Shown here in pieces: positions 1 through 56,399 of a stretch of DNA of 64,000 nt. A model generated the notes under the pieces. The model made no database searches. It had not been told where the DNA came from and worked only from the letters and a program-made list of their open reading frames with translations. How positions within the stretch are numbered: position 1 is the first letter of the stretch; each line of letters starts with the position of its first letter. Position numbers and translations under genes: made by a program. The stretch is taken from contig CAXHJY010000489.1 in assembly GCA_964016885.1 (NCBI GenBank), positions 62,001-126,000 of the forward strand, given 5' to 3'. This DNA comes from Eledone cirrhosa (taxonomy: Eukaryota).

Positions 1-3000
1 TGTTAGCGTTTGCATTAGTTTTAGTGTTAGTGTCTCTGTTAGCGTTTGCATTAATTTTAATGTTAGTGTCTGTGTTAGCGTTTGCGTTATTGTCTGTGTT
101 AGTGTATGTGTTAGCGTTTGCATTAGTTTTAGTGTTAGTGTCTGTGTTAGCGTTTGCATTAGTTTTAGTGTTAGTGTCTGTGTTAGTGTTTGCATTTGTT
201 TTAGTGTTAGTGTCTGTGTTAGCGCTTGCATTAGTTTTAGTGTTAGTGTCTGTGTTAGCGTTTGCATTAGTTTTAGTGTTAGTGTCTGTGTTAGCGTTTG
301 CATTAGTTTTAGTGTTAGTGTCTGTTTTAGCGTTTGCGTTAGTGTCTGTGTTAGCGTTTGCATTAGTTTTAGTGTTAGTGTCTGTGTTAGCGTTTGCGTT
401 AGTGTCTGTGTTAGCGTTTGCATTAGGTTTTAGTGTTAGTGTCTGTGTTAGCGTTTTCGTTAGCATTTGGGTTAGCGTTTGCATTAGTTTTAGTGTTAGT
501 GTCTTTGTTAGCGTTTGCGTTAGCATTTGGGTCAGCGTTTGCATTAGTTTTAGTGTTAGTGTCTGTGTTAGCATTTGCATTAGTTTTAGTGTCTGTGTTA
601 GCGTTTTCATTAGTTTTAGTGTTAGGGTCTGTGTTAGCGTTTGCATTAGTTTTAGTGTTACTGTCTGTGTTAGCGTTTGCATTAGTTTTAGTGTTAGTGT
701 CTGTGTTAGCGTTTGCATTAGTTTTAGTGCTAGTGTCTCTGTTAGCGTTTGCATTAGTTTTAGTGTTATTGTCTGTGTTAGCATTTCCATTAGTTTTATT
801 GTTAGTGTCTGTGTTAGCGTTTGCATTAGTTTTAGTGTTAGTGTCTGTGTTAGCGTTTGCATTTGTTTTAGTGTTAGTGTGTGTGTTAGCGTTTGCATTT
901 GTTTTAGTGTTAGTGTCTGTGTTAGCGTTTGCATTAATTTTAGTGTTAGTGCCTGTGTTAGCATTTGCGTTAATTTTAGTGTTAGTGTCTGCATTAGTTT
1001 TAGTGTTACTGTCTGTGTTAGCGTTTGCATTAGTTTTAATGTTAGTGTCTGAGTTAGCGTTTGCATTAGTTTTAGTGTATGTGTTAGCATTGGCATTAGT
1101 TTTATTGTTAGTGTCTTTGTTAGCATTTGCATTAGTTTTATTGTTAGTGTCTGTGTTAGCGTTTGCATTAGTTTTAGTGTTAGTGTCTGTGTTAGCGTTT
1201 GCGTTAGTGTCTGTGTTAGCGTGTGTGTTAGCGTTTGCATTAGTTTTAGTGTTAGTGTTAGCGTTTGCATTAGTTTTAGTGCTAGTGTCTCTCTTAGCGT
1301 TTGCATTAGTTTTAGTGTTATTGTCTGTGTTAGCATTTTCATTAGTTTTAGTGTTAGTGTCTGTGTTAGCGTTTGCATTAATTTTAGAGTCTGTGTTAGC
1401 GTTTTCATTAATTTTAGTGTTCGTGTCTGTGTTAGCGTTTGCATTAGTTTTAATGTTAGTGTCTGAGTTAGCGTTTGCATTAGTTTTAGTGCTATTGTCT
1501 GTGTTAGTGTTTGCATTAGTTTTAGTTTTAGTGTCTGTGTTAGCGTTTGCATTAGTTTTAGTGTCTGTATTATCGTTTGCATTAGTTTTAGTGTTAGTGT
1601 CTGTTTTAGCGTTTGCATTAGTTTTAGTGTTAGTGTCTGCGTTTGCGTTAGCGTTTGCATTAGTTTTAGTGTTATTGTCTGTGTTAGCGTTTGCATTAGT
1701 TTTAGTGTCTGTGTTAGCGTTTTCATTAGTTTTAGTGTTAGTGTCTGTGTTAGCGTTTGCATTAGTGTCTGTGTTAGTGTCTGTGTTAGCGTTTGCATTA
1801 GTTTTAGTGTTAGTGTTAGCGTTTGCATTAGTTTTAGTGCTAGTGTCTCTGTTAGCGTTTGCATTAGTTTTAATGTTAGTGTCTGTGTTAGCATTTGCAT
1901 TAGTTTTAGTGTCTGTGTTAGCGTTTTCATTAGTTTTAGTGTTAGTGTCTGTGTTAGCGTTTGCATTAGTTTTAATGTTAGTGTCTCTGTTAGCGTTTGC
2001 ATTAGTTTTAGTGATAGTGTCTGTGTTAGGTGTCTGTGTTAGGTGTCTGTGTTTGCATTATTTTTAGTTCTAGTGTCTCTGTTAGCGTTTGCATTTGTTT
2101 TAGTGTTATTGTCTGTGTTAGCATTTCCATTAGTTTTATTGTTAGTGTCTGTGTTAGCGTTTGCATTATTTTTAGTATTAGTGTCTGTGTTAGCGTTTGC
2201 ATTAGTTTTAGTGTTAGTGTGTGTTAGCGTTTGCATTAGTTTTAGTGTTAGTGTTAGCGTTTGCATTAATTTTAGTGTTAGTGTCTGTGTTAGCGTTTGC
2301 ATTAGTTTTAGTGTTAGTGTCTATGTTAGCGTTTGCATTAGTTTTAGTGTTAGTTACTGTGTTAGCGTTTGCATTAGTTTTATTGTTAGTTTCTGTGTTA
2401 GCGTTTGCATTAGTTTTAGTGTTAGTGTCTGTGTTAGCGTTTGCGTTAGTGTCTGTGTTAGCGTGAGTGTTAGCGTTTGCATTAGTTTTAGTGTTAGTGT
2501 TAGCGTTTGCATTAGTTTTAGTGCTAGTGTCTCTGTTAGCGTTTGCATTAGTCTTAGTGTTATTGTCTGTGTTAGCATTTTCTTTAGTTTTAGTGTTAGT
2601 GTCTGTGTTAGCGTTTGCATTAGTTTTAGAGTCTGTGTTAGCGTTTTCATTAATTTTAGTGTTCGTGTCTGTGTTAGCGTTTGCATTAGTTTTAATGTTA
2701 GTGTCTGAGTTAGCGTTTGCATTAGTTTTAGTGCTATTGTCTGTGTTAGTGTTTGCATTAGTTTTAGTTTTAGTGTCTGTGTTAGCGTTTGCATTAGTTT
2801 TAGTGTCTGTATTATCGTTTGCATTAGTTTTAGTGTTAGTGTCTGTGTTAGCGTTTGCATTAGTTTTAGTGTTAGTGTCTGCGTTTGCGTTAGCGTTTGC
2901 ATTAGTTTTAGTGTTATTGTCTGTGTTAGCGTTTGCATTAGTTTTAGTGTCTGTGTTAGCGTTTTCATTAGTTTTAGTGTTAGTGTCTGTGTTAGCGTTT

Positions 3001-3745
3001 GCATTAGTGTCTGTGTTAGTGTCTGTGTTAGCGTTTGCATTAGTTTTAGTGTTAGTGTTAGCGTTTGCATTAGTTTTAGTGCTAGTGTCTCTGTTAGCGT
3101 TTGCATTAGTTTTAATGTTAGTGTCTGTGTTAGCATTTGCATTAGTTTTAGTGTCTGTGTTAGCGTTTTCATTAGTTTTAGTGTTAGTGTCTGTGTTAGC
3201 GTTTGCATTAGTTTTAATGTTAGTGTCTCTGTTAGCGTTTGCATTAGTTTTAGTGTTAGTGTGTGTTAGCGTTTGCATTAGTTTTAGTGTCTGTGTTAGC
3301 GTTTGCATTAGTTTTAGTGTTAGTGTCTGTGTTAGCGTTTGCATTAGTTTTAGTGTTAGTTACTGTGTTAGCGTTTGCATTAGTTTTAGTGTTAGTGTCT
3401 GTGTTAGCGTTTGCATTAGTTTTAGTGTTAGTGTCTGTGTTAGCATTTGCATTAGTTTTAGTGTTAGTGTCTGTGTTAGCATTTGCATTAGTTTTAGTGT
3501 TAGTGTCTGTGTTAGCATTTGCATTAGTTTTAGTGTTACTGTCTGTGTTAGCGTTTGCATTAGTTTTAGTGTTTGTGTCTTTGTTAGCGTTTGCATTAAT
3601 TTTAGTGTTAGTGTCTGTGTTAACGTTTGCATTAGTTTTAGTGTTAGTGTCTGTGTTAACGTTTGCATTAGTTTTAGTGTTAGTGTCTGTGATAGCGTTT
3701 GCATTAGTTTTAGTGTTAGTGTCAGCTTTAGCGTTAGTTTTTTAA
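1..3745. repeat. Satellite array, 36-bp consensus GTTAGC-GTTTGC-ATTAGT-TTTAGT-GTTAGT-GTCTGT built from hexamers; runs off the window start
   Basis: Tandem periodicity is directly visible; units gain or lose whole hexamers; all long ORFs here are low-complexity readouts. Confidence 0.97.
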
Positions 3746-3833
3746 GGTGAGTATTAGTGCTAGTATTTATTTATTTTGCTGTTTATTGTTAGTTTTCTCG
3801 TTAATATTATTATTAGTGTACAGGTGAGTGTTC

Positions 3834-3948
3834 GGGTTAAGGTTAAGGTTAGGGTTAAGCTTACGGTTAGGGTTATGATTAGGGTTAAGGTTAAGGTTAG
3901 GGTTAAGGTTAGGGTTAAGGTTAGGGTTAAGGTTTGGGTTAAGGTTAG
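3834..3948 (+). repeat. Degenerate telomere-like array of mixed TTAGGG/TTAAGG
   Basis: ggttaaggttagggttaaggttagggttaagg... read directly. Confidence 0.85.
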
Positions 3949-4132
3949 TGAACCGGTTAGTGTTCAGATTAGTGTTAGTCTTCAGGTTATCGTTAGTGTT
4001 AGTTTTCTCTTTAGTGTTGGTGTTCCTGTTAGCTTTTGTGTTACTGTAAGTGTTTTATTTTGGGGCTTGCTTTTAGTTAACAGTTAGGTTTGCTGCTTTC
4101 CATGTAAAAAAGTTGATTCTTTCTAACTTAAT

Positions 4133-4440
4133 TGGTGTGGTGTAGTATGGTATAGTATAGTGTGGTGTGGTATAGTATAGTGTTTCGTAGTGTGGTGTGG
4201 TATAATATAGTGTTTCATAGTGTGGTATGGTATAGTGCGGTATAGTGTAGTGTGGTGTGATGCGGTATGGTATAGTGTTTCATACTGGTGTGGTGTGGTA
4301 TGATATGGTATAGTGTTTCATAGTGTGGTGTGGTATGGTATAGCGTTTCATAGTGTGGTGTGGCATAGTGTTTCATAGTGTGGTGTGGTGTGGTATGGTA
4401 TAGTGTTTTGTAGTATGGTGTGGTGTAGTGTGGCATAGTT
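4133..4440. repeat. Pentamer-based simple repeat (GTGTG/GTATA/GTATG)
   Basis: Direct inspection. Confidence 0.9.
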
Positions 4441-4484
4441 TGATTATAATAATGGGTTCTGAGTTGGGCACAAGGCCAGTTTAA

Positions 4485-4683
4485 TAATAATAATGGTTTC
4501 TAATTTTTTGGCACAAGGCCAGTAAATACCCCAGTGCATTACTGGTACTTTATTTTATCGATCCCGTAAGGATAAAAGGCAAAGTTAACCTCGGCGGGAT
4601 TTGAACTCAGAATGTAAAGGACCATAACTATGCTGTGATGCATGTTGTCTGATGCTCTACCAATTCTACCAATCCACCAGCCT
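4485..4683 (-). mobile_element. tRNA-derived SINE family 1 (central Nin/Deu-like domain, AAT tail)
   Basis: Minus strand: A-box-like tggtagaattgg, B-box gagttcaaatcc, body gttaactttgcctt..tcgataaaataaagtaccag; recurs at 15.4, 55.1, 56.5, 58.4 and 62.5 kb. Confidence 0.85.
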
Positions 4684-4684
4684 T

Positions 4685-4724
<40 letters not shown>

Positions 4725-4773
4725 GTAATAATAATAACAATAATAATAGTAACAATAATAATAATTGTGCTTG

Positions 4774-4817
4774 TTAATCTTCTTTATCTTCTTCTGTGCC
4801 TTTGTCTTCTCTTCCAT
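4774..4817 (-). pseudogene. Putative terminal exon, phase-1 reading DGREDKGTEEDKED*
   Basis: Acceptor ttttgtattcag|ATGG; exon start and intron flank are homologous to 5249-5430. Confidence 0.5.
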
Positions 4818-4959
4818 CTGAATACAAAAAAAAAAGGAATGTAAAAAATATATGTTGCCTATCTCTTGGACTTTACGAAGTGCTGAGGGGATAAAGTTAA
4901 TTTAAAAAGCAGTGTGCTCATGCACTGTGATCCTATCTAAACATATCTATAGGTCATTA

Positions 4960-5210
4960 CGTTACGTTACAGCTTACACCTATACCGATTTAGCTGGCCT
5001 CATCCAAGGTATATCTCGTTGGAGGTGTCTTGGGTAATTTAATGATAGGGACCCCAGTCCTATCATCTCATTTCTACAGCTGAGTAAGCTGGAGCAACGT
5101 GAAATAAAGTGTCTTGCTCAAGGAAAGAACACATCACCCGGTCCGAGAATTGAACTCACAACCTTTCGATTGCAAGCCCAATGCTCTAACCACTAAGCCA
5201 TGTGCCTTCA
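4960..5210 (-). mobile_element. tRNA-derived SINE family 2, (GTAAC)n-tail variant, with a 13-bp TSD
   Basis: A-box tggcttagtgg, B-box gagttcaattc, CORE-like ccttgagcaagacacttt; TSD ctataggtcatta (4947-4959) / ctataggacatta (5211-5223). Confidence 0.85.
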
Positions 5211-5248
5211 CTATAGGACATTAGGTTAAGATTAAACTGAAATCATAC

Positions 5249-5337
5249 CTTTGTCTTCTTTGTCTTTACTTTCTTCATCTTTGATTTCCTTGTCTTCGTT
5301 TTTGTCGTTGCTTTATCTTCTTTTTCTTCTCTTCCAT
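5249..5337 (-). pseudogene. Exon-like segment coding a D/E/K-rich peptide with an apparent 1-nt frameshift
   Basis: Acceptor tttttatatttag|ATGG and donor AAG|gtatga; 89 bp; DGREEKEDK continues as DKNEDKEIKDEESKDKEDK in a shifted frame. Confidence 0.55.
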
Positions 5338-5437
5338 CTAAATATAAAAAAATTGTAAACAAATATATATGTAGCTGATCTCTCAGACTTTCACGAAGTG
5401 CTGAGGAGATAAAGTTAATATAAAGAGTGGTGGGCTC

Positions 5438-5502
<65 letters not shown>

Positions 5503-5968
5503 AAACAAAAACAATAACGAAGAGTGCAGTACAGAGTGTTAGTATTAGGAGTGGGGGGGTACGTTTCAGACATAAACCCTTCATCAGGAGAAAAGTGGGA
5601 AGGAAAGGAGTTTCGAGGGTGTGAGGGGGAGTGGTGGAAAGACATTAAAAGGGGGGGGGGGGGTTAAAAAGAGGGTAAAAAAATTAAAATAAAACAAGTG
5701 GTGAAAGGGTGTGAGGCACACACACATATATATATATATATATGGTATGGTATAGCATGGTGTCATGTGGTGTGTGATACAGCATGGTGTGATATGGTGT
5801 GGTATGATGTGGTGGTGGAGACAACGTTAGATAAATGTTAACAATACACATGTAGCATCCACATGTCATTAAGTTAAGACAGGTGTAATCGTATCTATAG
5901 GTCATTAATGTAAGACAGGTGTGGCCCTATCTATATGTCGTTAGTTTAAAACTACACTGAGATCATAC

Positions 5969-6049
5969 CTTAAAATGATACTCAATGAGGTGTTTAATTT
6001 CTCAGATCCTTTGAAATAACTTCCTTTCTCTTATTGTAACTGGACACAC
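5969..6049 (-). pseudogene. 81-bp exon-like segment, stops in all three frames
   Basis: Acceptor tttctgttttctattttgcag|G and donor AAG|gtatga; downstream intron resembles that of the 5249 exon. Confidence 0.45.
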
Positions 6050-6084
6050 CTGCAAAATAGAAAACAGAAATGTTAGAGTGGACA

Positions 6085-6435
6085 ATGGTATGCTGTAGTA
6101 TGGTGTAATGTGGTGTAGTGTGGTGCAGGGTTATGTAGTGTGGTGTAGTGTGGTGTAATGTAGTGGAGTGTAGTATAGTAGAGAGTGGTGTGGTGTAGGG
6201 GACAGTGGTGTGGTGTAGTGTAGTAGGGTTTGGTGTGGTGCAGTGGATAGTGGTGGGGTGTAGTGTAGAAGAATGTGGTGTAGTGGAGTGTGGTGTAATG
6301 TATTGGAGTGTAGTATAGTGGACAGTGGTGTGGTGTAGTGTGGGTGTAATGTAGTGGAGTGTAGTAAAGTGGATAGTGGTGTGGTGTAGAGGACAGTGGT
6401 GTGGTGTAGTGTAGTAGGGTTTGGTGTGGTGTAGT
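6085..6435. repeat. GTGTG/GTGTA pentamer repeat with an internal duplication
   Basis: Direct inspection. Confidence 0.85.
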
Positions 6436-6438
6436 GCC

Positions 6439-7362
6439 ATGTGCTATCAACTAATCCAACCTCCAAGATGCTTAAAACTGACTTTTCTCTGCAGGAAAAC
6501 GGTGGAGTGAGTTGAGATGGTTCCCTGTTCACCCAGATAACCCCTTCTTACTCAGAATTTTCTCTACGATGCTATTTTCATGAGTTATCAGTGAATATGA
6601 CTTCTAAACCAGTTAAAAACAACTAGCTTTTGAGAAAAAGGAGAGGGAAGGGGGAAGGCTTTTGCAGATCTACACCCCATTCACAAGTTGTGGGACATAA
6701 TTATTTTCGGTATTTTTCTAATCTGACCTAGATGCTTCTAAACAACTTATTTCCCTGGGTTAGGTTTAGGGTAACGTTTAGGGTTTAGTTTAAGAGTTTG
6801 GATAAAGTTTACATTTTAGTTTTATGGTTGGGGTAAAGTTTAAGGGTTTGGGGTAAAATTTAGGGTTTAGTTATAGGGTTGGGTAAAGTTTAGGGTTTAG
6901 TTTTATGGTTGGGGTAATGTTTAGGCTTTAGTTTAAGGGTTGGGGTTGTGTTTATATTTATATTTAGCTTGGTTGTGGTTAGATTTAGAGTTTAAGGTTG
7001 GGGCTAAATTTAATTTTAATTTAGTTTTAGTCTTAGCACTAGGGTTTCCGAATCCCAGGAAGAAAAGTTGATTCATAGAAACTAACAGTTCAGATTAGTT
7101 GATAGCACACAAAAGAGAACCGAAGAAAAATCACTAGGGTGTATATCTACAAAACGACAATGTCTTTCCATCCCCTTTACCCCTCCTTTCTCTAGAACAA
7201 CTAGTCGTTTCCAACTGGTGTCGAGGTCATATTCGTTGATAACATACAAAAAATCTTAGAGAAAACTCCAGAGTTAAATGAGAGAAGCGCATCCACCTTA
7301 GTTTTCCAGGAAGAGAAAGTCAATAGCAAGCATCTTGGAGTTAGGATTAGTTGATAGCACAT
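6439..7362. mobile_element. Foldback/MITE-like element: diverged ~230-bp inverted arms around a telomere-like core
   Basis: Left arm atgtgctatcaactaatccaacctccaagatgc...; right arm ...gcatcttggagttaggattagttgatagcacat; similarity spans about 6439-6678 and 7135-7362. Confidence 0.75.
6757..7045 (+). repeat. Degenerate TTTAGGG/TTGGGG telomere-like minisatellite
   Basis: Repeating ggggtaaagtttagggtttagtt.. Confidence 0.75.
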
Positions 7363-7389
7363 GAATAAAAAGAGGAAAAAATGTTGGGT

Positions 7390-7580
7390 GTTATGTGGTG
7401 TGGTATAGTCTTCTCCCTTGGTGAGGTGTAGTATAGTGTGGTGCGGTGTGGTGAGGTGTAGTGTAGTGTAGTGTAGTGTAGTGTGGTGTGGTGTGGTGTG
7501 GTGTGGTGTGGTGTGGTGTGGTGTGGTGTGGTGTGGTGTGGTGTGGTGTGGTGTGCTGTGCTGTGTTGTGTTGTGTTATT
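7390..7580. repeat. (GTGTG)n/(GTGTA)n microsatellite
   Basis: Direct inspection. Confidence 0.95.
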
Positions 7581-7821
7581 ATGCAAGCACCTTTGATGTC
7601 ACATTAGGTGGTAACCGCAATAAAAAACAAGTAAATTTGTCACTTTCATGTCAATACCATGGTGTAATGTAAATGGTAGAAGTAGGTGTTCTGCTATAAA
7701 TTTACAATGATATGATATAGTATGGTATGGTCTGTTTTGTTATAATGTGTTTCCATATAAAGTAAGGACTTTAATTTCCACTTTGATTTAAGTCAGAAAA
7801 AAAAATTTTCTTTGTTTTTCT

Positions 7822-8020
7822 ATGTGTTATCAACTAATCCAACCATCAACATACTCGCAGTAGACTATACTTTAGCATGTTAACAAATATGACTCCCACT
7901 CCAATAAAAAATGACTAGATTTGTGAATGGTATTTCCACCCACTTTCGCTCTCTTTTTTCTACAAAGCTAGTCATTTTCGATAGGTTTCAAAGTCATATT
8001 CATTGATAATATGTGCAAAA
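7822..8020. mobile_element. Shorter decayed relative of the 6439-7362 foldback element
   Basis: Starts atgtgttatcaactaatccaacc; internal aatatgact..gactag / ctagtc..agtcatatt inverted pair. Confidence 0.5.
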
Positions 8021-8339
8021 AATAGTCAATTGTGAGCACCTTTAATGTCAGATTGGGTGGTAAGCACACACAAAATAAAAAATTATGTATGTGGTGTAGT
8101 TTTGTAAGGTTTAGTGTAGTTTGTTATGGTTTGGTGTAGTTATAACATGGAAAGCTATCATAAATTTACCAGGGTATGGTATAATCTGGTTTATTGTTGT
8201 GTAGGTTAGTGTGGTGTGTTGTGCTGTGTTATTGTGTTGCATTGTGATTCTCTTTAAATTAAAATCATTATCTTCTATATCTTAAAGAGTGACCTTAAAT
8301 ATAATTGCAATCAACTTTCTTCCTTGACTAATATTTGAT

Positions 8340-9425
8340 TTAGGGTTAGTGTTAGGCTAAGATTTACTGTTAATGGTAAGTTTATTATTAGTGACTGTGT
8401 TACTGTTAGCGTTATTGTTAGCATTACTGTTAGTGTTACTGTAACTGTTATTTCTAGCGTCACTGTTTGCGTCAGTGTTAGCATTTGAATAAGCTTCTAT
8501 GTAAACTTTTGTGTTAGTGTCTATGTAGAGTCTCTGTTAGCATCTGCGTCAGTGTTTGCATTAGTGTCAACATTTGTGTCAGCGTCTGCATTTGTGATAG
8601 TGATTGCGTCAGCATTTCCCTTAGCGCCTGTGTCAGCATTTGCGTTTGTTTCAGTGTCTGCGTCTACGTCAGCGTTTGCTTCTGAGTCAGCGTTATCATT
8701 ACCATACACGTTATCATTTGCATTCGAGTTTGCATCAGCGTTTGCGTCAGCTTCCACGTAAGCATTTGCACTAGAGTTTACGTCAGCGTCTGTTTGCGTT
8801 TGCGTAGGCGTTAGCATTAGCTTTTGTGTTTGCGACATTTCCTTCAGTATCTGTGTCACCGCCTGTCAGCGTTTGCGTTAGCGTCAGTATTTACGTCTGC
8901 CTCAGCATTTGCATCAGCGTTAGCTTTTGCATTAGTGTCTGCGTCAGTGTTTCCATTAGCGACTGTCAGCGTTTCCATTACCATCTGCGTCAGTGCTTCC
9001 ATTAGCATCTGCATCAGTGTTTGCGTTAGCGTCTGCATCAGTTTCCGTTCGCATCTGCGTCAGCGTTCCTATTAGCGTCTGCGTCAGCGTTTACCTTAGC
9101 AACTGCGTCAGCGTTTACATTAACGTCTGCGTCAGCGTTTACAATAACGTCTACGTCAGCGTTTCCGTTAGCATTAGCGTTTCCATCAACCTTTCCTGTG
9201 TCGTCCGCATCATTGCAGCATCTACATCAACAATTGCTTTGGGTCAGCATTTGCGTCAGCGTTAACGTTAGCTTTTGCTTTAGCGATCCGCATCAGCATT
9301 TGCCTTAGCGGCAACAATTGCGGCAGCACCAGCAAAACTTCCTCATCATTTGCGACAGCTTTTGCTTTAGCTTTAGCAATCCGCATCTGCATTTGCGTTG
9401 TAGATCAGCTTCGGCGGTAAGGGTA
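8340..9425. repeat. Old degenerate hexamer satellite (TTAGTG grading to GTCAGC/GTTTGC)
   Basis: Hexamer periodicity; begins with tagggttagtgttagg. Confidence 0.8.
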
Positions 9426-9426
9426 A

Positions 9427-9627
9427 ATGTTAACTTCTACGTCAGCATCTACGTTAACAACTACGTCAGCGTTTAAGTTAACTTCTACGTCAGCGTTTAA
9501 GTTAGCTTCTACGTCAGCGTTTAAGTTAGCTTCTACGTCAGCCTTTAAGTTAGCTTCTACGTCAGCGTTTAAGTTAGCTTCTACGTCAGCACTTAAGTTA
9601 GCTTCTACGTCAGCATTTAAGTTAGCG
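9427..9627. repeat. 24-bp minisatellite (gttagcttctacgtcagcgtttaa), about 8 copies
   Basis: Direct inspection; reads as LASTSAFK repeats. Confidence 0.92.
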
Positions 9628-11780
9628 TCTGAGGACCAGAAACAGGAGGTGTTCAAGATTGCGAGGCAGTGTGTCAGAGAGAATTGTGATGTCATTGGAG
9701 AGAAGTGTATCCGGAATGATAAAGGTGAGCTTGCCTTCATAAGTGCTGAGAAGAAAGATGCATGGACGAGCCATTATGATAGATTACTAAATGAGGAGAA
9801 TGCATGGGAAGAAGAGACCCTACTCCAAGTAGACCATATAGAGAGGCCAGCAGTACAAGTCAGCAGCAGCGTAGTAAGTAAGGCAATCAAAGATATGAAA
9901 ATGGGGAGGGCAACCGGTCCATCGGGTATAGCTGCCAAGATGCTGAAGGCATCTGGGTCTGTAGGTCACACTATAACCACACATATTGTTAACCAGGTAA
10001 TACTAGGTGTCATACCAAAAGATTGGTGCAGTAGCATCATTGTCAACTGCTACAAAGGTAAAGGTGATGCACTAGATAGAGGAAACTATAGAGGTATAAA
10101 GCTGATGGACCAGGTCATGAAAGTAACAGAAAGAGTTATAGCACAGTTAATTAGGGACCGGGTGAAACTAGATGAGATGCAATTTCGGTTTGTACCAGGA
10201 AGAGGGACCACTGATGCCCTCTTCCTTGTGAGGCAGTTACAGGAAAAGTACCTAGCTAAAAGTAAGCCACTCTACCTGGCATTCGTCGATCTCGAGAAAG
10301 CCTTTGACAGAGTTTCACGTGCTATAATCTGGTGGGCTCTTAGAAAACTAGGAGTAAATGAATGGCTTGTGAAAGCTGAACAAGCCATGTATAAAGGAGC
10401 AGTCACCAAAGTTAGGATTAGCAATGAGTATAGCGAGGAATTTAGCGTACAGGTCGGTGTCCACCATGGCTCTGTTCTTAACCCTCTCCTGTTCATCATA
10501 GTCCTGCAGGCAATAACGGAGGAGTTTAAGACCGGATGCCCATGGGAACTCCTGTATGCAGATGACCTCGCACTTATAGCTGAATCTATGGTAGAACTAG
10601 AGAAGAAATTCCAAACTTGGAAGAAAGGGTCTCAAAGTCAACCTGACAAAGACTAAGGTCCTTGTAAGTAGACGAGAAAACAGAACCCAGATCCTCTCAG
10701 GGAAATGGCCTTGCTCAGTATGTAGGAAAGGTGTAGGTAGGAACTCCATTCTCTGTCCCAAATGCAAACAATGGGTACACAAGAGATGTAGCGGGATCTC
10801 AGGAAGCTTAATTAAGAATGTAGGCTTCACATGTAGCAGCTGTGCTGAGACAGCAAGCAGCAAACAGCCACAGGAAACAAGTACCACCAATCTCTGGGAG
10901 GGCTCTGTAGAAACAGTAGACAGCTTCTGCTACCTAGGTAACTGAATTAGCAGCAGAGGTGGGTGTTCAGAAAGTACAATAACTAGGGTAAGAACGGGAT
11001 GGAAGAAGTTCAGGGAGCTACTGCCACTGCTAGCTACAAAAGGCTTTTCCCTCAAAATGAAAGGCAGACTGTATGATGCATGTATACGAACAGCAATGTT
11101 ACATGGTAGTGAGACCGGGCGCTGAAGGTGGAAGACTTACGTAGATTAGAAAGAAACGAAGCCTGCATGCTCCAATGGATGTGTAATAGTAATATATGCG
11201 AACCGCAAAGCATAAATAAATTGAGAGAGAGACTGAGCATAAGAGGAATCAAATGCTGTGTGCAGGAGAGGCGGTTGCGTTGGTATGGACATGTGATGCG
11301 TATGAAGGATGACAGTTGCATAAAAAGGTGCAGAGCCGTAGAAGTCAATGGAAACCGCGGAGTGGGGAGACCCAGCAAGACCTGGTATGAGGTGATAAAA
11401 GCTGACCTTACCCAATTACACCTCTCAACCGTGACCTCTGGCGTCACACAGTAATACAGAGTACCCGACCTCCCGAAGCTGAAGCATATAGACAATATGC
11501 CCCCACACCCTCCCACTGCAAAGTGGTCGTGGAGGTGCCACGGCAAAAAAGCACCCAGCCCACACTGTAAAGTGGACATGTAGGCGCCACGGAAAAAAAG
11601 CACCCAGCACTCACTGTAAATGAGGTTGTTGTTAGGAAGGGCATCCAGCTGTAGAAATCAAGCCAAAATCAGCCCCTGTATGAGTAAGGCATGGTCAGCC
11701 GACCAGACACTGCCCACAACAGGACAACCCGTCTAACCCATGCTAGCATGGAAGAACGGACGTAAAATGATGATGATGAT
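9628..11780 (+). mobile_element. 5'-truncated RTE-clade LINE (family A), defective RT plus 3' UTR and (ATG)n tail
   Basis: NYRGIKLM, AFVDLEKAFDRV, GVHHGSVLNPLLF, LLYADD; frameshift near 10620; RRLRWYGHVMRM. Confidence 0.95.
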
Positions 11781-11785
11781 ATATA

Positions 11786-11935
11786 CATATATTGTTATAC
11801 TTGGGGAGGGTCATATTGTAATGATATTGCCAGAAATAATAACAGAACACACTCACTGTTTGGTTGGTTTTCGCTTCTGTATCTTTTATATCTCACAGTT
11901 AATTCATTTGGTCCTCAATGTTTATCATTGACTGA
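11786..11935 (+). mobile_element. Fragment of a TATATTGTTATACTT-ended MITE family
   Basis: Similar to 28560-28695 and to the arms of 53692-54061. Confidence 0.65.
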
Positions 11936-12023
11936 CCAACGGTCAAAAATACAGATATAAACACACACACACACATATATATATATATATGGAAAGTTAT
12001 ATTTAAATTGTTGGGTTACATTG

Positions 12024-12089
12024 TATTTTTTCTGAAGAAGGCATAACATATTGTTAATATGATATCCCTGAAATATATATAATGAAATA
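12024..12089 (+). ncRNA. Type I hammerhead ribozyme
   Basis: tatttttt CTGAAGA agg..cct GAAA tatata TA atgaaata; one mismatch in stem I. Confidence 0.75.
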
Positions 12090-12129
12090 AATATGGTTTT
12101 ATAAATATAGTTTCCATTTATTTAATATC

Positions 12130-12173
<44 letters not shown>

Positions 12174-12539
12174 ATTGCAGCAACTCAATTTCGAGTAATG
12201 CCATCGATTGATACTTAGCCATGAGTGTCACAGGCGGCTTTTTAATCCTGATAGGGATTTCCCTATGCCTAGCAATACCATGCATCGCAAAAAATGTCAC
12301 ATATCACGTGATGCCTATGCTTGAAGCTTTTTTAAGTGAGGAAAGGCTTTGCATAGGGCCAATCCCACTCTTTGACCATCAAATGCATTTACTCCAAAAA
12401 TAGCAATGGACTACATCATTAGATGGAAACAAATCCATATGTTTTATATCAGAGTAACCTTCTCCTAGAGAGATATCTTAATGAAGACTAGGTGTCTATC
12501 ATGCAAAAATAGAATTTATCCAAAAGTTCTTGAACTTTA

Positions 12540-14575
12540 TGGCTTCTATCTCCCAGTCAGCCACCATCAAACCAGTTTCTTTCAATGTGTCCTTTACACA
12601 ATCCTTGAATTGAAGCCTTGGCTTGTTGGGTGGTCTCTTACCTTTACAAAGCTCGCCATACAAAGGTTGTTTTGAGATTCAATCATCTTCTATTCTGCAG
12701 AGGTGTCTGGTCCATCGCAAAGATCGTTGGTGGATGATAATCTCAATGCTCCAACACTCACTTCTGTCAAAGACTTCAGCATCACACACATGCAGCTGCC
12801 ACTTGATACCGAGTATCTTTCTGAGACAGTGCTGGTGAAATCGTTCCAGTCTTTGGATATGCCGTTTGTAGGCAACCCATGTCTCACAAGCGTACAGCAA
12901 AGCTGACAGTATACACTCTCGCCTTGGCCTTCATTGAGATTCCTTGCCTGGACCAAAGATGGTCGCTGAGCCTTCCAAATGACTCACTTGCTTTACTAAC
13001 ACGTAGACAAACTTCTGCATCCATCGAGTTGGTCACACTCAGAGTACTCCTCAAATACACAAATCTGTCAGCAACCTTCAGCTTTTGACTGTATACATAT
13101 ATGGAAGGTTCATTGAAAACTTTATCCAGAGCAGGTTGGTACATGACAGTCTTCTTCAGACTGTCAGTCCCAAAGCACTGCATGCATTGGAGAAAGAATC
13201 CATAAGGTGTTGCATGTCACTCTGGTAGTGTGCAAAGAGATCACAATGATCTGCATACAGAAATTCTCTGATTAAGGTACACAGTACCTTAGTGTTGGCA
13301 GCGAGGTACCTGAGCTTGCCAGAAGTGCGATATCTGAAATAGATACCATGTTGACAACTCTTGAAGGCTATTTTCCACCGAGAATGGCTCAGACAGTTTA
13401 CCTCCAATATTTACCCATGTCTGCATGTCATCATGGAAGAGCTTGAATATGTTCACAAATTTTCAGGACAGCCCAATCTCTCCAAAATAATCCACAAAGC
13501 CTTCCGATTTACGGTGTCAAATGCCTTGGTCAGATCAACAAAAACTTGGTATAAGTTCATGCACTGCTTTATGCATTTCTCTTGAAGTTGTTTGGCTGAG
13601 AAGACCATGTCAACAGTGCCTCTGCCATTTCTAAAGCCACATTGGGACTCAGGAAGTACCTCAACAGCATGTGCTATATCAATCTGTCCATCAATATCCT
13701 GCACAAGATCTTCCTAGCCACAGATAGCAGTGAGATACCTCTGTAGTTGCCACAACCATCTTTGGCTCCTTTGTAAAATACCACCATCAATGCATCTTTC
13801 CAGTCCTGTGGTACATCATCTTCATTCCAAACATTCACAAAGAGATCAGTGAGGTGGTTTAAGAAGTTATCACCAGCACACTTAAATATCTCGGCACTCA
13901 ATCCATCCATTCCAGGTGACTTGACGCTGTTTAATTTGGCAATGGCATTCACCACCTCATCAAATGAAGGAGGATCAGCCATTGCCAGCATTGTAGGTCT
14001 GGATATAATCGACCAGATGAACTCATCAATTTCTGATGGTCTGTTGAGAATCTCATCAAAGTGGTCATGCCACCTGATCAGGATTTCTTTCGGATCTGAG
14101 CAATTCCTTGCCATCTTTGGAGCAAAATGGGGATATTTGTGGACCGGTTGGACCATACACCTCCCTAAGCAGATTGTATAAGTGCTTTGTATCATGTCTA
14201 TCTGAGGTTTTCTGGGTTTCATCAGCTTTTTGTCTCCACCAGGTATCTTGCATGACTCTCAATTGATGTTGCACACGTACCTTGATTAGCTTGAAGATCC
14301 AGTCACTCCTGTCAGAACGTGTCTCACTCAACAATGATGTCAGCACTTTTTGTTTCTCTTCAAGCAAGATATAGATCACTGCATCATTTTCATCAAACCA
14401 GTCCTTATGCTTTCTATTGATATGATCTACAACTCCAGCACTGACATCATAGACGGTTTTCTTCAATGATACCCACTCAGGAGACTTCGACTGCTCTGCT
14501 CTGACTTCTGTCTTCAGACGAGCCACGTTTAGTCGTTTTGGAAGTGCAACCTTCTTCTCCCTTACTTTGGCAAAA
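12540..14575 (-). mobile_element. Decayed RTE-clade LINE, BovB-like family B
   Basis: NYRGISLLSVARKIL, PESQCGFRNGRGTVDM, FVDLTKAFDTV, FLYADHC, LYACETW; several frameshifts. Confidence 0.92.
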
Positions 14576-16162: not shown

Positions 16163-16476
16163 CATGTTTATATTTCCTCCCAGCACGAAATATGAATTGA
16201 CCTTCTTCAACACTTAATTTTCAATTCTTTTTTAAATTCTAATTGTAATATTTATTATTTGCTAATATGGATTACATCGAAACCGGTAGTATTGTATATA
16301 CTTTATAAAACTCTATTTAAAAAAAAATTCTTCTTTTTCAATAATGTCACTTTGACGGCTCAAAGAAGAAATTTCCGTACATTCTTACTTTTTTCTATAA
16401 CCTGTTTTGTATAGAACATTACCAACTTTTCAAACATATAAATATATATATATATATACACATATATATATATAAA

Positions 16477-16640
16477 CAGTGAAATTCCGTTATTACGAAA
16501 TTCAAGGGCTATAAAATAATTCGTTATAACGAAACATTCTTTATAACGAAATTGACCGAAATAAATCGAGCTTTTGTTATTACCTCGGGGATAGAAAAAA
16601 TCGTTATTATGGTATTCGTTATAACGGAATTTTACTTGTA
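16477..16640. mobile_element. Tc1/mariner (pogo/Tigger-like) MITE
   Basis: TIRs cagtgaaattccgttattacgaa / ttcgttataacggaattttacttg in TA context. Confidence 0.75.
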
Positions 16641-17000
16641 TACATACTTACATATACATACATACATAATATATATATGTATGTATGTAAAAGTTAAACA
16701 GAAACAATAAAACAAACGGCACAGTACATGGAAGAAATGTATTAGTTTAACGCTTGAAATAGTAGGAAGCCTGTCTTAATATTTTGGACATTAGTCCTTC
16801 ATCACAAGTTAAAGTTAGAAATAAATGATAAATAGAAAGTAAAGGGTGATAAGAGTGAGGAACAGGAGATAATTGTGGAGGAAAAAATTACCCTTGCGTA
16901 TTCATTTTGGAGACATGTGTATACATATATATATTTATATATATATATATATAAAAACAAATAACGAAACGAAATTAAATTTCGTTTCGTATACGTGTGT

Positions 17001-17072
17001 GTATTCATATGCATACTAGTATTCATATGCATACTAGTATTCATATGCATACTAGTATTCATATGCATACTA
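17001..17072. repeat. 18-bp tandem repeat gtattcatatgcatacta x4
   Basis: Four exact copies; only one copy in the duplicate at 17521. Confidence 0.95.
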
Positions 17073-17315
17073 GTATTTCAGTATACATATGTGGATGTAC
17101 ATTTTTAACTTAATTGTTTAAGCGTCAGTCATACAAAAGTGAGTTACAAACGAAACGAAATTTAATTTCGTTTCGTTATTTGTTTTTATCGTCTCCGTTG
17201 AACCGGTACGTACTCACGTTCTATGCAAATTAGTCTGCCCACTACTAATTTTCATAGAAAAAGTATATAACGATATGTGCTTTTACGATTCTCTAGAAAG
17301 GCCGGAAGATAGGTA

Positions 17316-18222: not shown

Positions 18223-18357
18223 GAGACGTGATTTTTTTTTTTTTTTTTTTTTTTTTCGTGCTGTACACATTCCATCTATTCAAATTTGCTTCTTCCTCAA
18301 AGTGACTGAACACTACCATTCTCAACATCTGCTACTGTTTATATAAATATATATATA

Positions 18358-18702
18358 TAACGAAGTTCCGAAATTCACGTGTATTAAAAATAATTCGTTG
18401 TAACGAAAAATTCTTTATAACGAAATCGACGTAACATATCGAGCATGTGGCCGGAGATTGAAAAAAATTTCGGTATACTGAAAAATTCGTTATAATGGTA
18501 ATCGTTATAACGAAATTTTACCTGTATATACAGTGGAATTCCGTTATAACGAAATTCACGGCTATAAAAGAAATTCGTTGTAACTAAAAAATTCTTTATA
18601 ATGAGATCGACCAAAACAAAGCGAGCATCTGTTTGTTATTACCTCAGGGATTGAAAAAACATTTGTTATAATGGTATTCATTATAATGGAAATTTACCTG
18701 TA
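18358..18702. mobile_element. Two tandem copies of the pogo/Tigger-like MITE joined at TATATA
   Basis: ..ttttacctg tatata cagtggaattccgttataacgaa..aatttacctg ta; same family as 16477. Confidence 0.75.
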
Positions 18703-28211: not shown

Positions 28212-28483
28212 ATCATCATCATCATCACCGTTTTACATCCGTTTTTCCACGCTAGCATGGGTTAGACGGGTTGTCCTGTTGTGGGCAGTAGCCGGTCGGC
28301 TGACCATGTCTTGCTCATACGGGAACTGATTCTGGCTTGATTTCTACAACTGGATGCCCTTCCTAACACTAACCTCATTTACAGTGAGTGCTGGGTGCTT
28401 TTTTTCCGTGGCGCCTACATGTCCACTTTACAGTGTGGGCTGAGTGCTTTTTTGCTGTGACGCCTCCACAACCACTTTGCAGT

Positions 28484-28487
<4 letters not shown>
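28212..28487 (-). mobile_element. RTE family A 3' UTR-only insertion
   Basis: Reverse complement of 11512-11780. Confidence 0.9.
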
Positions 28488-37400: not shown

Positions 37401-37800
37401 AAATGTTGAGGCTAAAGTGGCAGCTGATTTTGATTGTTTTGGGGATTTGTTTGTTAATGGTAGCAATGAAAGTTTGCGCAGCAGGGTGGTAGTGGAAGGT
37501 GGTGTTGGGTGGTGGCTAAAATGCTTTTTGCAGTTTATTTGCTAGATTCATTATGGCTAAAAAAGCGTTTTCCTGTTTAGGGAACTGTAAGTGTCTATAG
37601 TTGTGGGTTTTATATTGGGTAGGAGTCCCATTTTTATTTTTATTTGTACAAGTCCCCGGAAGATGAGTAAAAGGACAATCACACTGCAGACATAATCTGT
37701 CTTGCTGGGAATAGCGGCAGATTTGGAAAAATTCAGAGTTAGCTGTGTGTGTATATTTATGTTTTTTTAACATTTGGTGAAGTTATTGGTGGTGGTGGTG
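34410..37800 (-). mobile_element. Near full-length decayed CR1-group LINE (ORF1 remnant, APE, RT, ATCAAAGTT-repeat tail)
   Basis: Cys/His motif ICRY..CLQCDCPFTH; VGLYRAP, MGDFNLP; NYRPISF, YLDFSNVFDRV, SGVPQGTVLGPLLF; RPHLEYCCPLWS. Confidence 0.92.
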
Positions 37801-38049
37801 GTGGTGGTGGTGATATTATTTTGGAATATGTGCTTTGGTGTCGGATGTTGTTGTTTGTAGAGATTGAATGTTTTCTCCCGGGTAAATGAGTGAATTTGCA
37901 GTCTCTTGCCATACATAATCTATTACATAAAGAATAGCGGCAAATGATAGCGCTGTGAGTGGGTGTGTGAGAGGTATAGATGATAATTTGTGTAGGTTTG
38001 GGTATCTGGTGTGAGCTGTGAGAGGTAAATTCCTATACATACATATATA

Positions 38050-44279: not shown

Positions 44280-45560
44280 ATCATGGTGTCTGCTCAGCTT
44301 GGCTTGGTCCCTATGGCTTGAGGGGAGTTCCCAACCTATGGTGTTGTTACTGCCCATATATCTTGAGGGAGGTCTGGCCGAGAGGTGTCTACATGTTCAG
44401 GAGAAGTCCTTATAGCTTGAGGAGAGTTCAATCTTATTGTGTTGCTACTGTCCATATATCTTGAGGAAGGTCCCGGCCCTGAGGTGTCTGCATGTCCCAA
44501 AGAAGTCGGTTCTGGGGTTTATCAGGCCGCTTCCACCTCTTAGTATCTCGAGGGTCTCGTTCAGACATAGTTTGCATATGCCAGATCCCCCTTTATCGGG
44601 TGGTACTTTCCTGATTATGGACCAGGCCAGAGAGTACGGGGTCCTGTCCAGCTTAAGCTTCCAGATCAGGTCGGAGAGAGCCGTACTTTTCCTTTTGGCC
44701 TCCTTATTGAAAGAATGGCGATGGTTATACCAGCGGTCTTTAAAGCTCGTTGATGTGGCTCCTATGTAGAGGTGTTCGGAGTTGGGGGTTTTTACCCCTA
44801 CAACCGTATACTAGGTTCTTCTTAAAGCATTCATTACCAAGGGGGCATGATTCGGGGTTTCTGCAGTTGCAGAGGGTGGTCGACCTCTGCGTGCCTAGAG
44901 TGGGGTTCCCGTTAAGTGTTACATGGTGGTCTCCCCGGGTACGGTGGGGGGTCCCCGGGTCTGTTTGGGTTTCTTGGGTGGGCACTGGGTCCCCCTTCTC
45001 TCCTTCCACATGGTTCTGCTGAGTGCTTGTATTGCCATCTCTGGTTGTGTGTGGTTTTTAAGCCTACTCCTGTTGATGCTAGCTATGTGTTGGGCCAGAT
45101 TTCTCGTGGTGGAATACGAGAGCTTCACAGTGTGTCTGTTGAAGATCTTGTGGTATCTATGGTCCCTCGGGAAGCATTTATCAAGTGCTCCAAAGAATGA
45201 TCGGGCCAAGCTGTTCTTTAGGGCCGCTGAGTAGGGTGGGTTGTACCACGTGATTTTTCTGTGTCTCCTCCTATATGTGTGGGTTGGGGGCGTCGTGAGT
45301 TGTTGGAGATTTGTTGGGTTGCTGGTGGTTCCCGCATTGTTGCTTCCCCTTTGGGCACTATGCGTTTTGCTATCTTCACGGCCCGAATCTGTGAGGTGGT
45401 CATTGCCCGTGCTGAGAGATCCACCATGGGGTGGTCACCCGTTGCCCCCCACGTGTTCTGCGGTTGGGGTCGTTGGGCCCGGGGTGGTTAGCAACACCCC
45501 TGAGACTGCTACTCATATTGGGTTTCATCTCATGGTTAAGCGTACTCGTCACCAACGCCC
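44280..45560 (-). mobile_element. Penelope-like element 3' coding part (linker and GIY-YIG), frameshifted
   Basis: HRYHKIFNRHTVKLSYS, CNCRNPESCPLGNEC..LVY, YIGAT..FKDRWYNH, CKLCLNE. Confidence 0.88.
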
Positions 45561-45610: not shown

Positions 45611-45988
45611 AGGTACATGGTTAGAGCATTAGCCTTGCAATCGAAAGGTTGTGAGTTCAATTCTCAGACTGAGTGATGTGTTGTTTCCTTGAGCAAGACA
45701 CTTTATTTCACATTGCTCCAGTTTACTCAGCAGTAGAAATGAGATTTTAGGGACTGGGGTCCCTATCATTCCACTCTAAAGTGGTCATGGAGGTGCCACG
45801 GCAAAAAAGCACCCAGCCCACACTGTAAAGTGGAATGAAGGCGCCACGGAAAAAAGCACCCAGCACTCACTGTAAATGAGGTTGGTGTTAAGAAGGGCAT
45901 CCAGCTGTAGAAATCAAGCCAGAATCAGTTCCCGTCCCACCCTTGCAAGCAGGGCAAAGCGGACGTAAAATTATGATGATGATGATGA
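45608..45988 (+). mobile_element. SINE family 2 with two internal 48-bp units
   Basis: Homologous to 32745; A-box partly deleted. Confidence 0.9.
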
Positions 45989-51089: not shown

Positions 51090-52670
51090 ATTAGAGAAGA
51101 AGTTCCAAACCTGGAAGTATGACCTAGAATCAGAAGGTCTTAAAGTTAACTTGTCAATGACAAAAGTTCTAATATGTAGAAAGGAAAACGGCCCAGATTC
51201 CTTCAGGGAAATGGCCTTGCTCAGTGTGCAAAAAAGGAGTAGGTAGAAGTTCGATCCTATCTCCCAAATGGAAGCTATGGGTACATAAAACATATTGTGG
51301 GATCACATGCAGGCTATTAAAGAATGTAGAATTTATAACAATGCACAGGTACAGTAAGTAGCTAGAGCTCACAGGATACTAGCTCCTTCAAATACCAGAT
51401 GGCTCTGTAGAAATAGTCGACAGTTTCCATTACCTGGGTGACCAAATAAGCAGTGAAGGAGGGTGTTCCAAAAGTACAGTGGCCAAAGTAAGAATGGGAT
51501 GGAGAAAATTCTGGGAGCTACTACCGCGGCTAGCTACAAAAATCTTTTCTTTCAAAATGAAGGGCAGATTGTATGAGGCATGTATACAAACAGCAATGTT
51601 GCATGGTACTGTGGCAGAGGATCTGCAAAGATTGGAAACAAATGAAGCCTGCATGTACCAATGGTTGTGTAATAGTAATATACATGACCAACAAAGCGTA
51701 AATGAACTCAGAGAGAAATTGGGCATAAGAGGGATGAGATGCAGTGTGCCAGAGAGGAGATTGCTTTGGTATGGCCATGTGATGTGTATGAAGCATGACA
51801 GCTGTATAAAAAGGTGCAGGGTGTTCAAAGTTGATGGAAGCTATGGAGTAGGAAGACTTGGAATGAGGTGATAAAAGCTGACCTTGTACAATTGCACTTC
51901 TCAAAGACAATGACACAGGATGGAAATCTTTGGTATTATGCAGTAATACAGAAAACCTGCCTTCCCATGCACATGGATTAAAGAATACATACATCTAGTA
52001 TGCACCTCTTAACCACTATCCTCTCTCCCCCTTCCATACATCTCCCACACCCTATCACTCCCCTCACATCTGGTCATACCACCCTTCACCCATGCCTTTA
52101 AACCCCCTGCCCCAGTCCACACTGTAAAGTTGTAATGTTGGTATCATGATAAAAAGCTCACAACTCAGACTGTAAAGTGGTCATGCTGTTATCACAATAA
52201 AAACACCCAGCCCACACTGTAAAATGTTTGTGTAGGTGTCATGACAAAAAGCACCCAGCCCACACTGTAAATTGGTTGTGTAGGTGTCATGACAAAAAGC
52301 ACCCAGCCAATACTGTAAAATGTTTGTGTAGGTGTCATGACAAAAAACACCCAGCCCACACTGTAAAATGTTTGTGTAGGTGTCATGACAAAAAGCACCC
52401 AGCCAACACTGTAAGATGGTCATGTAGGTGTCATGACAAACAACACCCAGCCCACACTGTAAATTGGTTGTGTAGGTGTCATGACAAAAAGCACCCAGTA
52501 CACACTGTAAATGTAGTTGGTGTTAGGAAGGGCATCAAGCCATAGAAACCAAGCCTGAAACAACTCTGTATGAGCAAAACGCGGTCACTTGACCCGACTT
52601 GCTGTGAATGGGTCAACCTGTCTAACCCATGCTAGCATCGAAGATAGACATTAAACGATGATGATGATGA
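51090..52670 (+). mobile_element. RTE 3' fragment with expanded 3' UTR array
   Basis: LEKKFQTW.. through the C-terminus, UTR and ATG tail. Confidence 0.9.
52105..52520 (+). repeat. 48-bp tandem array inside an RTE 3' UTR (about 7 clear and 2 degenerate units)
   Basis: aaaagcacccagcccacactgtaaa..tgtgtaggtgtcatgaca. Confidence 0.92.
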
Positions 52671-54061: not shown

Positions 54062-54734
54062 CTGTTTCAGCATACGTTTTCACATAAGGAACTTTACAAA
54101 ACAAAGTATAAATATATATGTAATGTGTATAGTAATAATAAGTATGGAGACCAAAATCCGAAGAGGACTCGATAAAGATTTTTTATATATATTATAAAAG
54201 TATATATATAAACCCGTAGAGCAAATATTTATGGATAGTACAGATTAAAGTGTAAGCAAAGAATTTCTGCTTTCACCCTATTACGGGATATATGGAGATT
54301 TTGTTGCTACTATGAGCATTGCCTAAGACACCAGAAGAAATTATTTCACTGGGATTCCCAGTGGGTGGTTTGAAGGAGATTTAATGTTATTTGTAATAGG
54401 TTTTTTTGTCATGTTTATATGTGTGTTTATATATATATATATATGTGTGTGTGTGTATCCTGTAACATAGGGTTTATTTTTTCTTTAAAGAGATCGCTAA
54501 AATAAGCGTCTATCAATGTTAACAAAATTGATTGAAAGCAGACTACAATTGCTGGTGAAGAAAGAAACACACACACACATATTTATGTGTGAGTGTATGA
54601 TTTTTGTATGTGTGTGTATAAGTTTATAGTATACAATGATGAACTTTCTTTCCACCTCTTCCATATAAAGCATGAAACTGATAAGACTTTTTATATCTCT
54701 GTTTTTTTCATTTCCTTGACCTATATATATATAT

Positions 54735-54978
54735 GTGAAGGTACATGGCTTAGTGGTTAGAGCATTGGGCTTGCAATCCAAAGGTTGTGAGTTCAATTCT
54801 CGGACTGGGTGATATGTTGTTTCCTTTATTTCACGTTGCTCCAGTTTACTCAGCTGTAGAAATGAGTACCGGCCTGCCCGCCCAGCGTTATCTTATGGCT
54901 AAAACAACACAACGTGCTGTGACCAGTGGCGACGATTGGCACCCGACAGACTGGTCGGTCAAGGTGATCAAGGTGATA
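54735..54978 (+). mobile_element. SINE family 2 head with a third tail type (ending tcaaggtga repeats)
   Basis: Same A/B boxes; diverges after gtagaaatgag. Confidence 0.75.

Positions 54979-55730: not shown

Positions 55731-55795
<65 letters not shown>

Positions 55796-56368: not shown

Positions 56369-56399
<31 letters not shown>

Follow-up and report, generated by a model that had tools for sequence, protein, structure and literature searches.

Near the start of a 64,000-nucleotide stretch of Eledone cirrhosa DNA (assembly GCA_964016885.1, contig CAXHJY010000489.1, positions 62,001 to 126,000 of the forward strand; hereafter the window), several arrays resembling telomeric repeats are flanked by copies of one motif in inverted orientation. 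The question is whether the motif and the arrays are parts of one element, and whether this element is mobile. The initial annotation proposed a foldback element family whose telomere-like core expands and diverges into new satellites. We observed that the motif is the inner tip of much larger arms. There is about an even chance that at least four old foldback-type elements, all non-autonomous, lie here head to tail in a cluster, and that 24- and 36-bp satellites grew independently out of their hexamer middles. The cluster is not assigned to any superfamily.

The four motif strings quoted in the initial annotation are present where it had placed them. Three TTAG-rich arrays pass a density scan of the window, all on the plus strand, and the motif bounds them at all four intact edges, so these two claims hold. 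Only the array 6760-7053 has both ends. The left end of the 36-bp satellite lies beyond the window start, and the array beginning at 8330 is cut at 9630 by a long interspersed nuclear element (LINE). A gapped scan of both strands of the window (about 128,000 positions) with the 20-mer 7054-7073 yielded as top non-self matches 8309 on the minus strand (score 13), 6740 on the minus strand (12) and 4118 on the plus strand (12); the next score was 10. The copy at 4100 has 16/19 identical positions without gaps, and none of 3000 shuffles of the 120-bp local region reached it. The same procedure gave two of 3000 shuffles for the copy at 6740 (15/19) and 25 of 3000 for the copy at 8309 (14/19, one gap needed). 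The 11-mer core of the motif taken alone is weak or marginal (seven matches vs 2.84 expected; three of 100 shuffles). The junctions at 4100 and 7054 (7040-7074) are identical at 26 of 35 positions without gaps, in register into the first array hexamer. Sequences similar to the left tip are also present at 54334, 55652, 56854 and 58980; they come from a separate local duplication and are unmatched by the subunit profile described below.

The motif is the head of a subunit of 60-75 bp, found in 13 copies within 4100-8326, seven on the plus strand and six on the minus strand. It also heads outer subunits at 7306 and about 6495, distant from the TTAG arrays. The same subunits bound arrays of the pentamers TGGTG/TAGTG, which contain no TTAG and had been missed in the initial annotation; these arrays lie between the repeat units and are G-rich on the same strand as the TTAG arrays. 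The parts follow in the order satellite, right tip, pentamers, left arm, core, right arm, pentamers, orphan subunit, hairpin, pentamers, left tip, hexamer array. Below, the repeat units are called E0 to E3, and the subunits of an arm a1, a2 and a3.

1-3735, plus strand: 36-bp satellite made of six derived hexamers, 108 copies; its left end is outside the window.
3736-4099, plus strand: degenerate hexamer edge of E0; the block in it that most resembles a telomere repeat is 3835-3948, (GGTTAGGGTTAA) x9.5.
4100-4131, plus strand: right inner tip of E0, a truncated a1 subunit (the 26/35 match to the 7040-7074 junction).
4133-4439, plus strand: pentamer array of TGGTG/TAGTG/TGGTA.
About 5743-5815: shorter pentamer array.
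6067-6436, plus strand: pentamer array adjoining the E1 left arm.
6438-6759, minus strand: E1 left arm with a3, a2, a1 (anchors 6460, 6601, 6727); the motif is its inner tip, 6740-6759.
6760-7053, plus strand: telomere-like core of E1, G/T-rich on the plus strand only (3% C), with a higher-order unit of about 30-31 bp.
7054-7385, plus strand: E1 right arm with a1, a2, a3 (anchors 7089, 7226, 7341) and an A-rich tail.
7387-7580, plus strand: almost pure (TGGTG)n pentamer array.
7582-7639, plus strand: orphan a3-type subunit, sister of the subunit 8015-8088.
7800-8088: E2, a coreless hairpin with arms 7800-7924 and 7962-8088, two subunits each.
8085-8245, plus strand: degenerate pentamer array (lag-5 autocorrelation 0.47-0.55), under the density-scan threshold.
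8273-8326, minus strand: left inner subunit (a1) of E3; the motif is at 8309-8326.
8330-9629, plus strand: middle of E3, a hexamer array with 12-, 18- and 24-bp units, including a young 24-bp array at 9429-9630 (8.4 copies, 92% matches).
9630-11790, plus strand: 5'-truncated RTE-type LINE that cuts E3 without belonging to the element; a copy at 39140 is 88.8% identical.

The arms of E1 are about 320 bp long. Their end-to-end alignment (6438-6759 vs 7054-7363) has a score of 217 against a shuffle maximum of 71, with 222 of 293 columns identical, and the predicted single-strand DNA fold of the hairpin has z = -6.43 (0 of 20 shuffles). The second hairpin, E2, has no core; its arms of about 125 bp are identical in 85 of 119 columns and fold with z = -5.23 (0 of 200 shuffles). 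Each E1 arm consists of three related subunits spaced by 115-141 bp, and each E2 arm of two, with anchor spacings of 50 and 54 bp. The a2-a3 spacer is missing from both E2 arms, as expected if the arms were copied from each other.

The subunits, whose boundaries were set by eye, align nearly without gaps, and for 32 of the 78 pairs no more than 5 of 500 shuffles attain the observed score. Twelve copies contain conserved blocks at fixed spacing, with a mutual identity of just 35-77%. The subunit tree sorts by position in the arm and not by side: all four a2 copies group together (support 0.987), as do all four a1 copies (0.81), and every a1 copy abuts a TTAG array. A profile of the 13 copies recovers 12 of them at E 3e-5 or better, which is circular; when the copy in question was left out, the orphan at 7582 was recovered at E 1.4e-5 and the copy at 8309 at E 0.011-0.02. 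Of the traits that define foldback elements (PMC4079207), those found here are long terminal inverted repeats, internally repetitive arms and a variable non-coding middle. On the side of anatomy the case is stronger than had been claimed.

Mismatches between the inverted arms (6438-8088) favour G-U pairs on the minus strand by 29 to 13 (p = 0.02), and more weakly, by 33 to 19, with other gap costs. We do not take this bias as selection, as it depends on the alignment and CpG decay in the satellite leans the same way; it may reflect minus-strand transcription or replication asymmetry.

It is extremely unlikely that the palindrome 6438-7363 alone is real and the matches at 4100 and 8309 are accidental. 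The former copy is short and was not reported by the subunit profile built without it, and the latter has the modest leave-one-out and ungapped values given above. However, both are within the top three of all positions scanned, in the predicted orientation and at array edges, and for the copy at 4100 there are also the blank local shuffles and the homology that extends across the junction.

All three TTAG-rich arrays are composed of hexamers in telomere register. TTAG density is 50-94 per kb in the arrays, 22-30 per kb in 8481-9630 and 3.2 per kb in 9631-64000. Exact copies of TTAGGG, which we take to be the host's telomere repeat, are rare: six in 3736-4100, four in the core, one in 1-3735 and none in 8481-9630; CCCTAA does not occur in 3736-4100 or the core. 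End-to-end fusion of telomeres was rejected, as the core has no CCCTAA half. The mean distance from GTTAGG is 1.8 mismatches per hexamer in the E0 edge and 2.0 in both the core and the 36-bp satellite. In E3, going outward from the tip at 8309, it takes the values 2.1, 2.7, 2.8, 3.1 and 3.0. The 36-bp satellite and the 8481-9200 array have derived hexamers in common. Given this and the outward divergence, a common hexamer seed is plausible, and to this extent the suggestion that a telomere-like core diverged into satellites stands. However, the 24- and 36-bp units are unrelated in hexamer order: none of seven segments beats hexamer-order shuffles (the best was reached by 28 of 300), and therefore these higher-order units would have arisen separately. 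A common higher-order ancestor was rejected, the similarity being limited to the hexamer vocabulary. The 36-bp satellite is still turning over, with a recent duplication at offset 1242 (1118-2024 vs +1242) that is 98.9% identical. The E3 array does not resume beyond the LINE.

Read on the plus strand, the young array of 24-bp units continues without a frame change into the truncated LINE. The result is a chimeric open reading frame (ORF) of 409 amino acids (9427-10656) that could be called by a gene predictor. A G-rich stretch at 37689-37906 passes the pentamer scan yet has no subunit.

If the region is a cluster of foldback-type elements, its history might be as follows. Carrying two conserved blocks a constant distance apart, the subunits would be transposase-binding repeats, as in elements with long terminal inverted repeats (TIRs) that carry two or three direct repeats per arm. 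The copies may have inserted into a TGGTG/TAGTG microsatellite or been duplicated along with it, which would also mask any target-site duplication. The middle would be free to vary, being absent from E2, 0.3 kb in E1, more than 1.3 kb in E3 and more than 4 kb in E0, and may have grown by slippage and unequal exchange. Point changes in the hexamers, including CpG decay, would have been fixed and re-amplified as new higher-order units, independently in E0 and E3. The arms would have decayed over roughly 40-50 My, and a younger LINE would then have cut E3. The rough dates, some 40-50 My for the arm divergence and some 17 My for the LINE pair, are host-dependent and use the octopus substitution rate of 0.0036 per My (PMC13282606).

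A number of facts speak against such a history. Outside the cluster, in 9631-64000, no profile match was better than E 5 in any run, and no anchor was found at four or fewer mismatches. The confinement of all subunit copies to 4.2 kb fits local amplification just as well. The five a3 copies split into two groups and form no single clade, and the tip at 4100 was, as noted, missed by the profile built without it. The arm ends are ragged: the E1 left arm has no A-rich tail, and E0 and E3 retain a1 or a part of a1 only. The arrangement can also be read inversely, with the pentamer arrays as the enclosed middles. A check for target-site duplications, made on ends that are uncertain and old, found none of 4 bp or more at E2; at E1 the flanks share an 8-bp match, which is microsatellite on both sides. 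Several a1 and a3 tails end in ...TG, with TA next in one only, and the ends are not fixed. No transposase family of Pfam is matched by any of 116 ORFs of the window, a set made up of 114 of the 150 longest among 177 filtered ORFs (antisense duplicates dropped) and two from the repeat region. The matches in this set were to LINE reverse transcriptase, endonuclease and PHD domains and, weakly, to GIY-YIG (one, Penelope), with two further weak matches below the threshold.

The probes for other copies were all blank, each of them weak and run on collections other than the host genome. A gapped 25-base pattern had no matches in prokaryotic genome contigs. The translated arm had one match among 1.84 billion proteins (E 7e-4, 34% identity), treated as noise. 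In protein searches with the translated E3 array and with the translated tip and core, none of 116 and none of four candidates, respectively, matched. With no arm copy in the other 54 kb, no informative target-site duplication and no transposase, the dispersed mobile family of the initial annotation is unsupported.

One possibility, clearly less probable than a cluster of elements but a serious one, is a local scar that never moved. Here a 120-bp unit would have been tandemly repeated, folded into a palindrome, broken at the centre and healed with telomeric repeats in register on the GGG of the arm tip; the block, pentamer spacer included, would then have been duplicated head to tail; subtelomeric mosaics or interstitial telomeric scars would be comparable cases. 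All 13 subunits are indeed confined to 4100-8326. The left tip continues straight into the core as ...CCCTGGG|TTAGG, every array is G-rich on one strand, units and pentamer arrays alternate regularly, and neither an informative target-site duplication nor a transposase was found. Short interstitial telomeric repeats at sites of double-strand breaks are documented (PMC8537989, PMC6410037). On the other hand, the units are not plain copies of each other. Their arms differ in content, and the deletion common to both E2 arms is absent in E1, which requires arm-to-arm copying after the units had split. The blocks conserved at fixed spacing in 12 otherwise divergent copies resemble binding sites, and the core is far from pure TTAGGG.

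The pentamer microsatellites bear on a further explanation, which we consider quite improbable, namely that the region is a concatemer of rolling-circle non-autonomous elements of the Helentron-derived kind (HINE, DINE-1, Cg_HINE, pearl, DTC84), the pentamer microsatellite and the central array being modules of one element. In mollusc and insect elements of this kind, inverted repeats occur together with a microsatellite and a central array that can expand (PMC4067079, PMC7492417, PMC3879986). The combination of a microsatellite with central tandem repeats is found here as well, as pentamer arrays and hexamer-derived middles, and the units run head to tail on one strand. However, the inverted repeats described for those elements are subterminal and only 11-15 bp long, against symmetric arms of 125-320 bp (320 bp in E1) at this locus, and their microsatellites are mostly 4-mers such as GTCY. 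Elements of this kind insert into TT and have T-rich ends. They also have, near the 3' end, a stem-loop formed by a palindrome of 5-10 bp, whereas here no hairpin containing G or C with a stem of at least 5 bp was found near seven of eight tested ends; the stems seen were of A/T runs, except for one of 5 bp that lies in the left arm of E1, at 6483. No Rep/helicase is encoded among the 116 ORFs.

Yet another reading takes the region for a minus-strand gene that is either decayed or non-coding, in which the arrays would be remnants of exons encoding Thr-Asn, Ala-Asn or Ala-Asp repeats and the hairpins selected structures of the transcript. We regard it as highly improbable. In each of the two large arrays one minus-strand register contains no stop, but the column frequencies predict only 0.98 and 0.48 stops, so the open frames are accounted for by composition. 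Three exon-like pieces with good splice signals are present on the minus strand in 4760-6050, and an ATG before the tip at 7073 is in frame with the core. However, the satellite substitutions (38 non-synonymous and 11 synonymous) match the opportunity of 83 and 24, the E3 array has 12 register breaks in 940 bp, and there are no protein relatives, no Pfam family and no Rfam match at the gathering level. The G-U excess in the arms would fit a transcript, but it drops with other gap costs, and the decay of a CpG site in the satellite leans toward the same strand (13 to 4, in copies that are not independent), so that mutation asymmetry suffices to explain it. A coding origin of the arrays was rejected on the substitution pattern, the register breaks and the expected stops. 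The stop-free minus-strand frames (544-679 amino acids) are traps for gene predictors.

A structured RNA family was also rejected: a search of 3700-13000 against Rfam returned seven matches, none at the gathering score, and the best of these that is not microsatellite is a tRNA-like piece of a short interspersed nuclear element (SINE) at 5143-5200. The exon-like pieces (5968-6049, 5240-5337 and about 4760-4817) have good acceptors and, in two cases, similar donors. Two such pieces (4800-4919 vs 5320-5437, 79%) are paralogous and rich in Lys, Glu and Asp; one has stops in all three frames. In all likelihood they represent a gene, decayed or non-coding, situated in the space between repeat units.

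Several known systems resemble a cluster of foldback-type elements in part. Two of them, Tetris and miDNA4, are precedents for the conversion, with inverted ends placed around or within repeats that expand and turn into satellite DNA. Tetris of Drosophila virilis is non-coding, has long, internally repeated inverted arms and a variable middle, exists in many rearranged or partial copies and is a source of kilobase-size satellites (PMC4079207). However, its copies are dispersed and have target-site duplications of 8-10 bp, neither of which was seen here, and its satellite derives from the arm repeat (TIR-220; PMC4079207), whereas here the satellite derives from a telomere-like, strand-asymmetric middle; this comparison is by description and not by sequence. 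In miDNA4 and Xstir, transposable elements of the miniature inverted-repeat type (MITEs) of Xenopus, an internal tandem array grows, outlasts the decaying inverted ends and gives classical satellites. These are high-copy, dispersed and carry a captured satellite monomer, in contrast to the TTAGGG-like seed, several unrelated higher-order units and local cluster in E. cirrhosa (PMC12628747). In MuTAnT, a Mutator-like family that targets TA microsatellites, TIR elements also have microsatellite on both sides. However, it is a plant family with a dinucleotide target, a known autonomous partner and 218 copies, and any targeting here would be judged from one locus (PMC4486113). Interstitial and subtelomeric degenerate telomeric sequences likewise form one-strand TTAGGG-like runs in repeat-rich regions flanked by mobile elements and satellites, whereas here each run begins at a common, position-conserved arm tip (PMC6410037). 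The two or three direct repeats per arm of long-TIR Tc1/mariner elements of the Bari3 type recall the three subunits mirrored in both E1 arms (PMC4120734). In contrast to those elements, no transposase was found here, nor a clear TA duplication. Known Tc1/mariner direct repeats are shorter than 60-75 bp, and Tc1/mariner elements have a TA target-site duplication at defined ends.

No description of such an element was found in the literature searched, and five sequence strings matched no paper; Repbase, Dfam, bioRxiv supplements and the Octopus vulgaris consensus library (Zenodo) lay outside this search and may hold the family unnamed. The available text of the O. vulgaris repeat annotation paper and its supplement (tables only) make no mention of the element (PMC13282606).

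Conversion of transposons into satellites is well known. The new aspects are the telomere-like seed, the three-subunit arms and the pentamer spacers, all from one locus. Satellite birth is usually inferred from end products. Here four stages can be compared next to one shared arm tip: the middle is missing, is a telomere-like core of 0.3 kb, is an array of 1.3 kb that diverges outward and includes a young unit of 24 bp, or is a 36-bp satellite, homogenised and more than 3.7 kb long. Should the arms belong to a dispersed family, each copy would offer a natural replicate of how satellites evolve from one seed, and the copies would contribute interstitial telomere-like signal to cephalopod chromosomes. 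Should the structure be local, it would amount to an old repeat scar and be only modestly interesting. A bolder proposal, which we hold to be rather unlikely, is a cephalopod foldback family homing into TGGTG/TAGTG microsatellites, its telomeric seed having initially been added by telomerase to the GGG at a broken palindrome's tip. It would be a genome-wide satellite factory, each copy making its own 12-, 24-, 30- or 36-bp satellite out of the same telomere hexamer. Were it true, a single mobile unit would link where interstitial telomeric repeats come from with how satellites are born, each copy being an independent replicate from a known seed.

The window as a whole is repeat-rich animal DNA. 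One LINE ORF has relatives in Octopus bimaculoides (an entry with 66% identity over 70% of the query) and Hydractinia (entries with 53-54%); the top match, another entry, is at 66%, and an entry labelled as a bacterial assembly was found in the same search (73% over 66%). A tandem unit of 47-49 bp occurs in two to eight copies in the 3' tails of LINEs and SINEs at 11514-11620, 28378-28484, 45772-45876, 52111-52511, 55997-56184 and 57797-58118. In the region 54300-59100 a 2-3-kb block is locally duplicated; its partial copies number three to four, and every one has a small hairpin (about 54330, 55645, 56850 and 58975) and a 48-bp LINE-tail repeat, which is expanded to 6.7 copies at 57797-58118. 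Repeated short inverted modules on TTCGTTATAACGAA at 16420-17100 and 18350-18700 resemble a MITE family with multiple subterminal sites, and a perfect 18-bp repeat (x4.3) lies at 17001-17077. Penelope-like fragments are found on the minus strand at 44448-45434 and, presumably, 60142-60825, with a weak GIY-YIG match (E 8e-4). At 62510-62660, two copies of the SINE piece 4489-4605 stand head to head and form a short palindrome.

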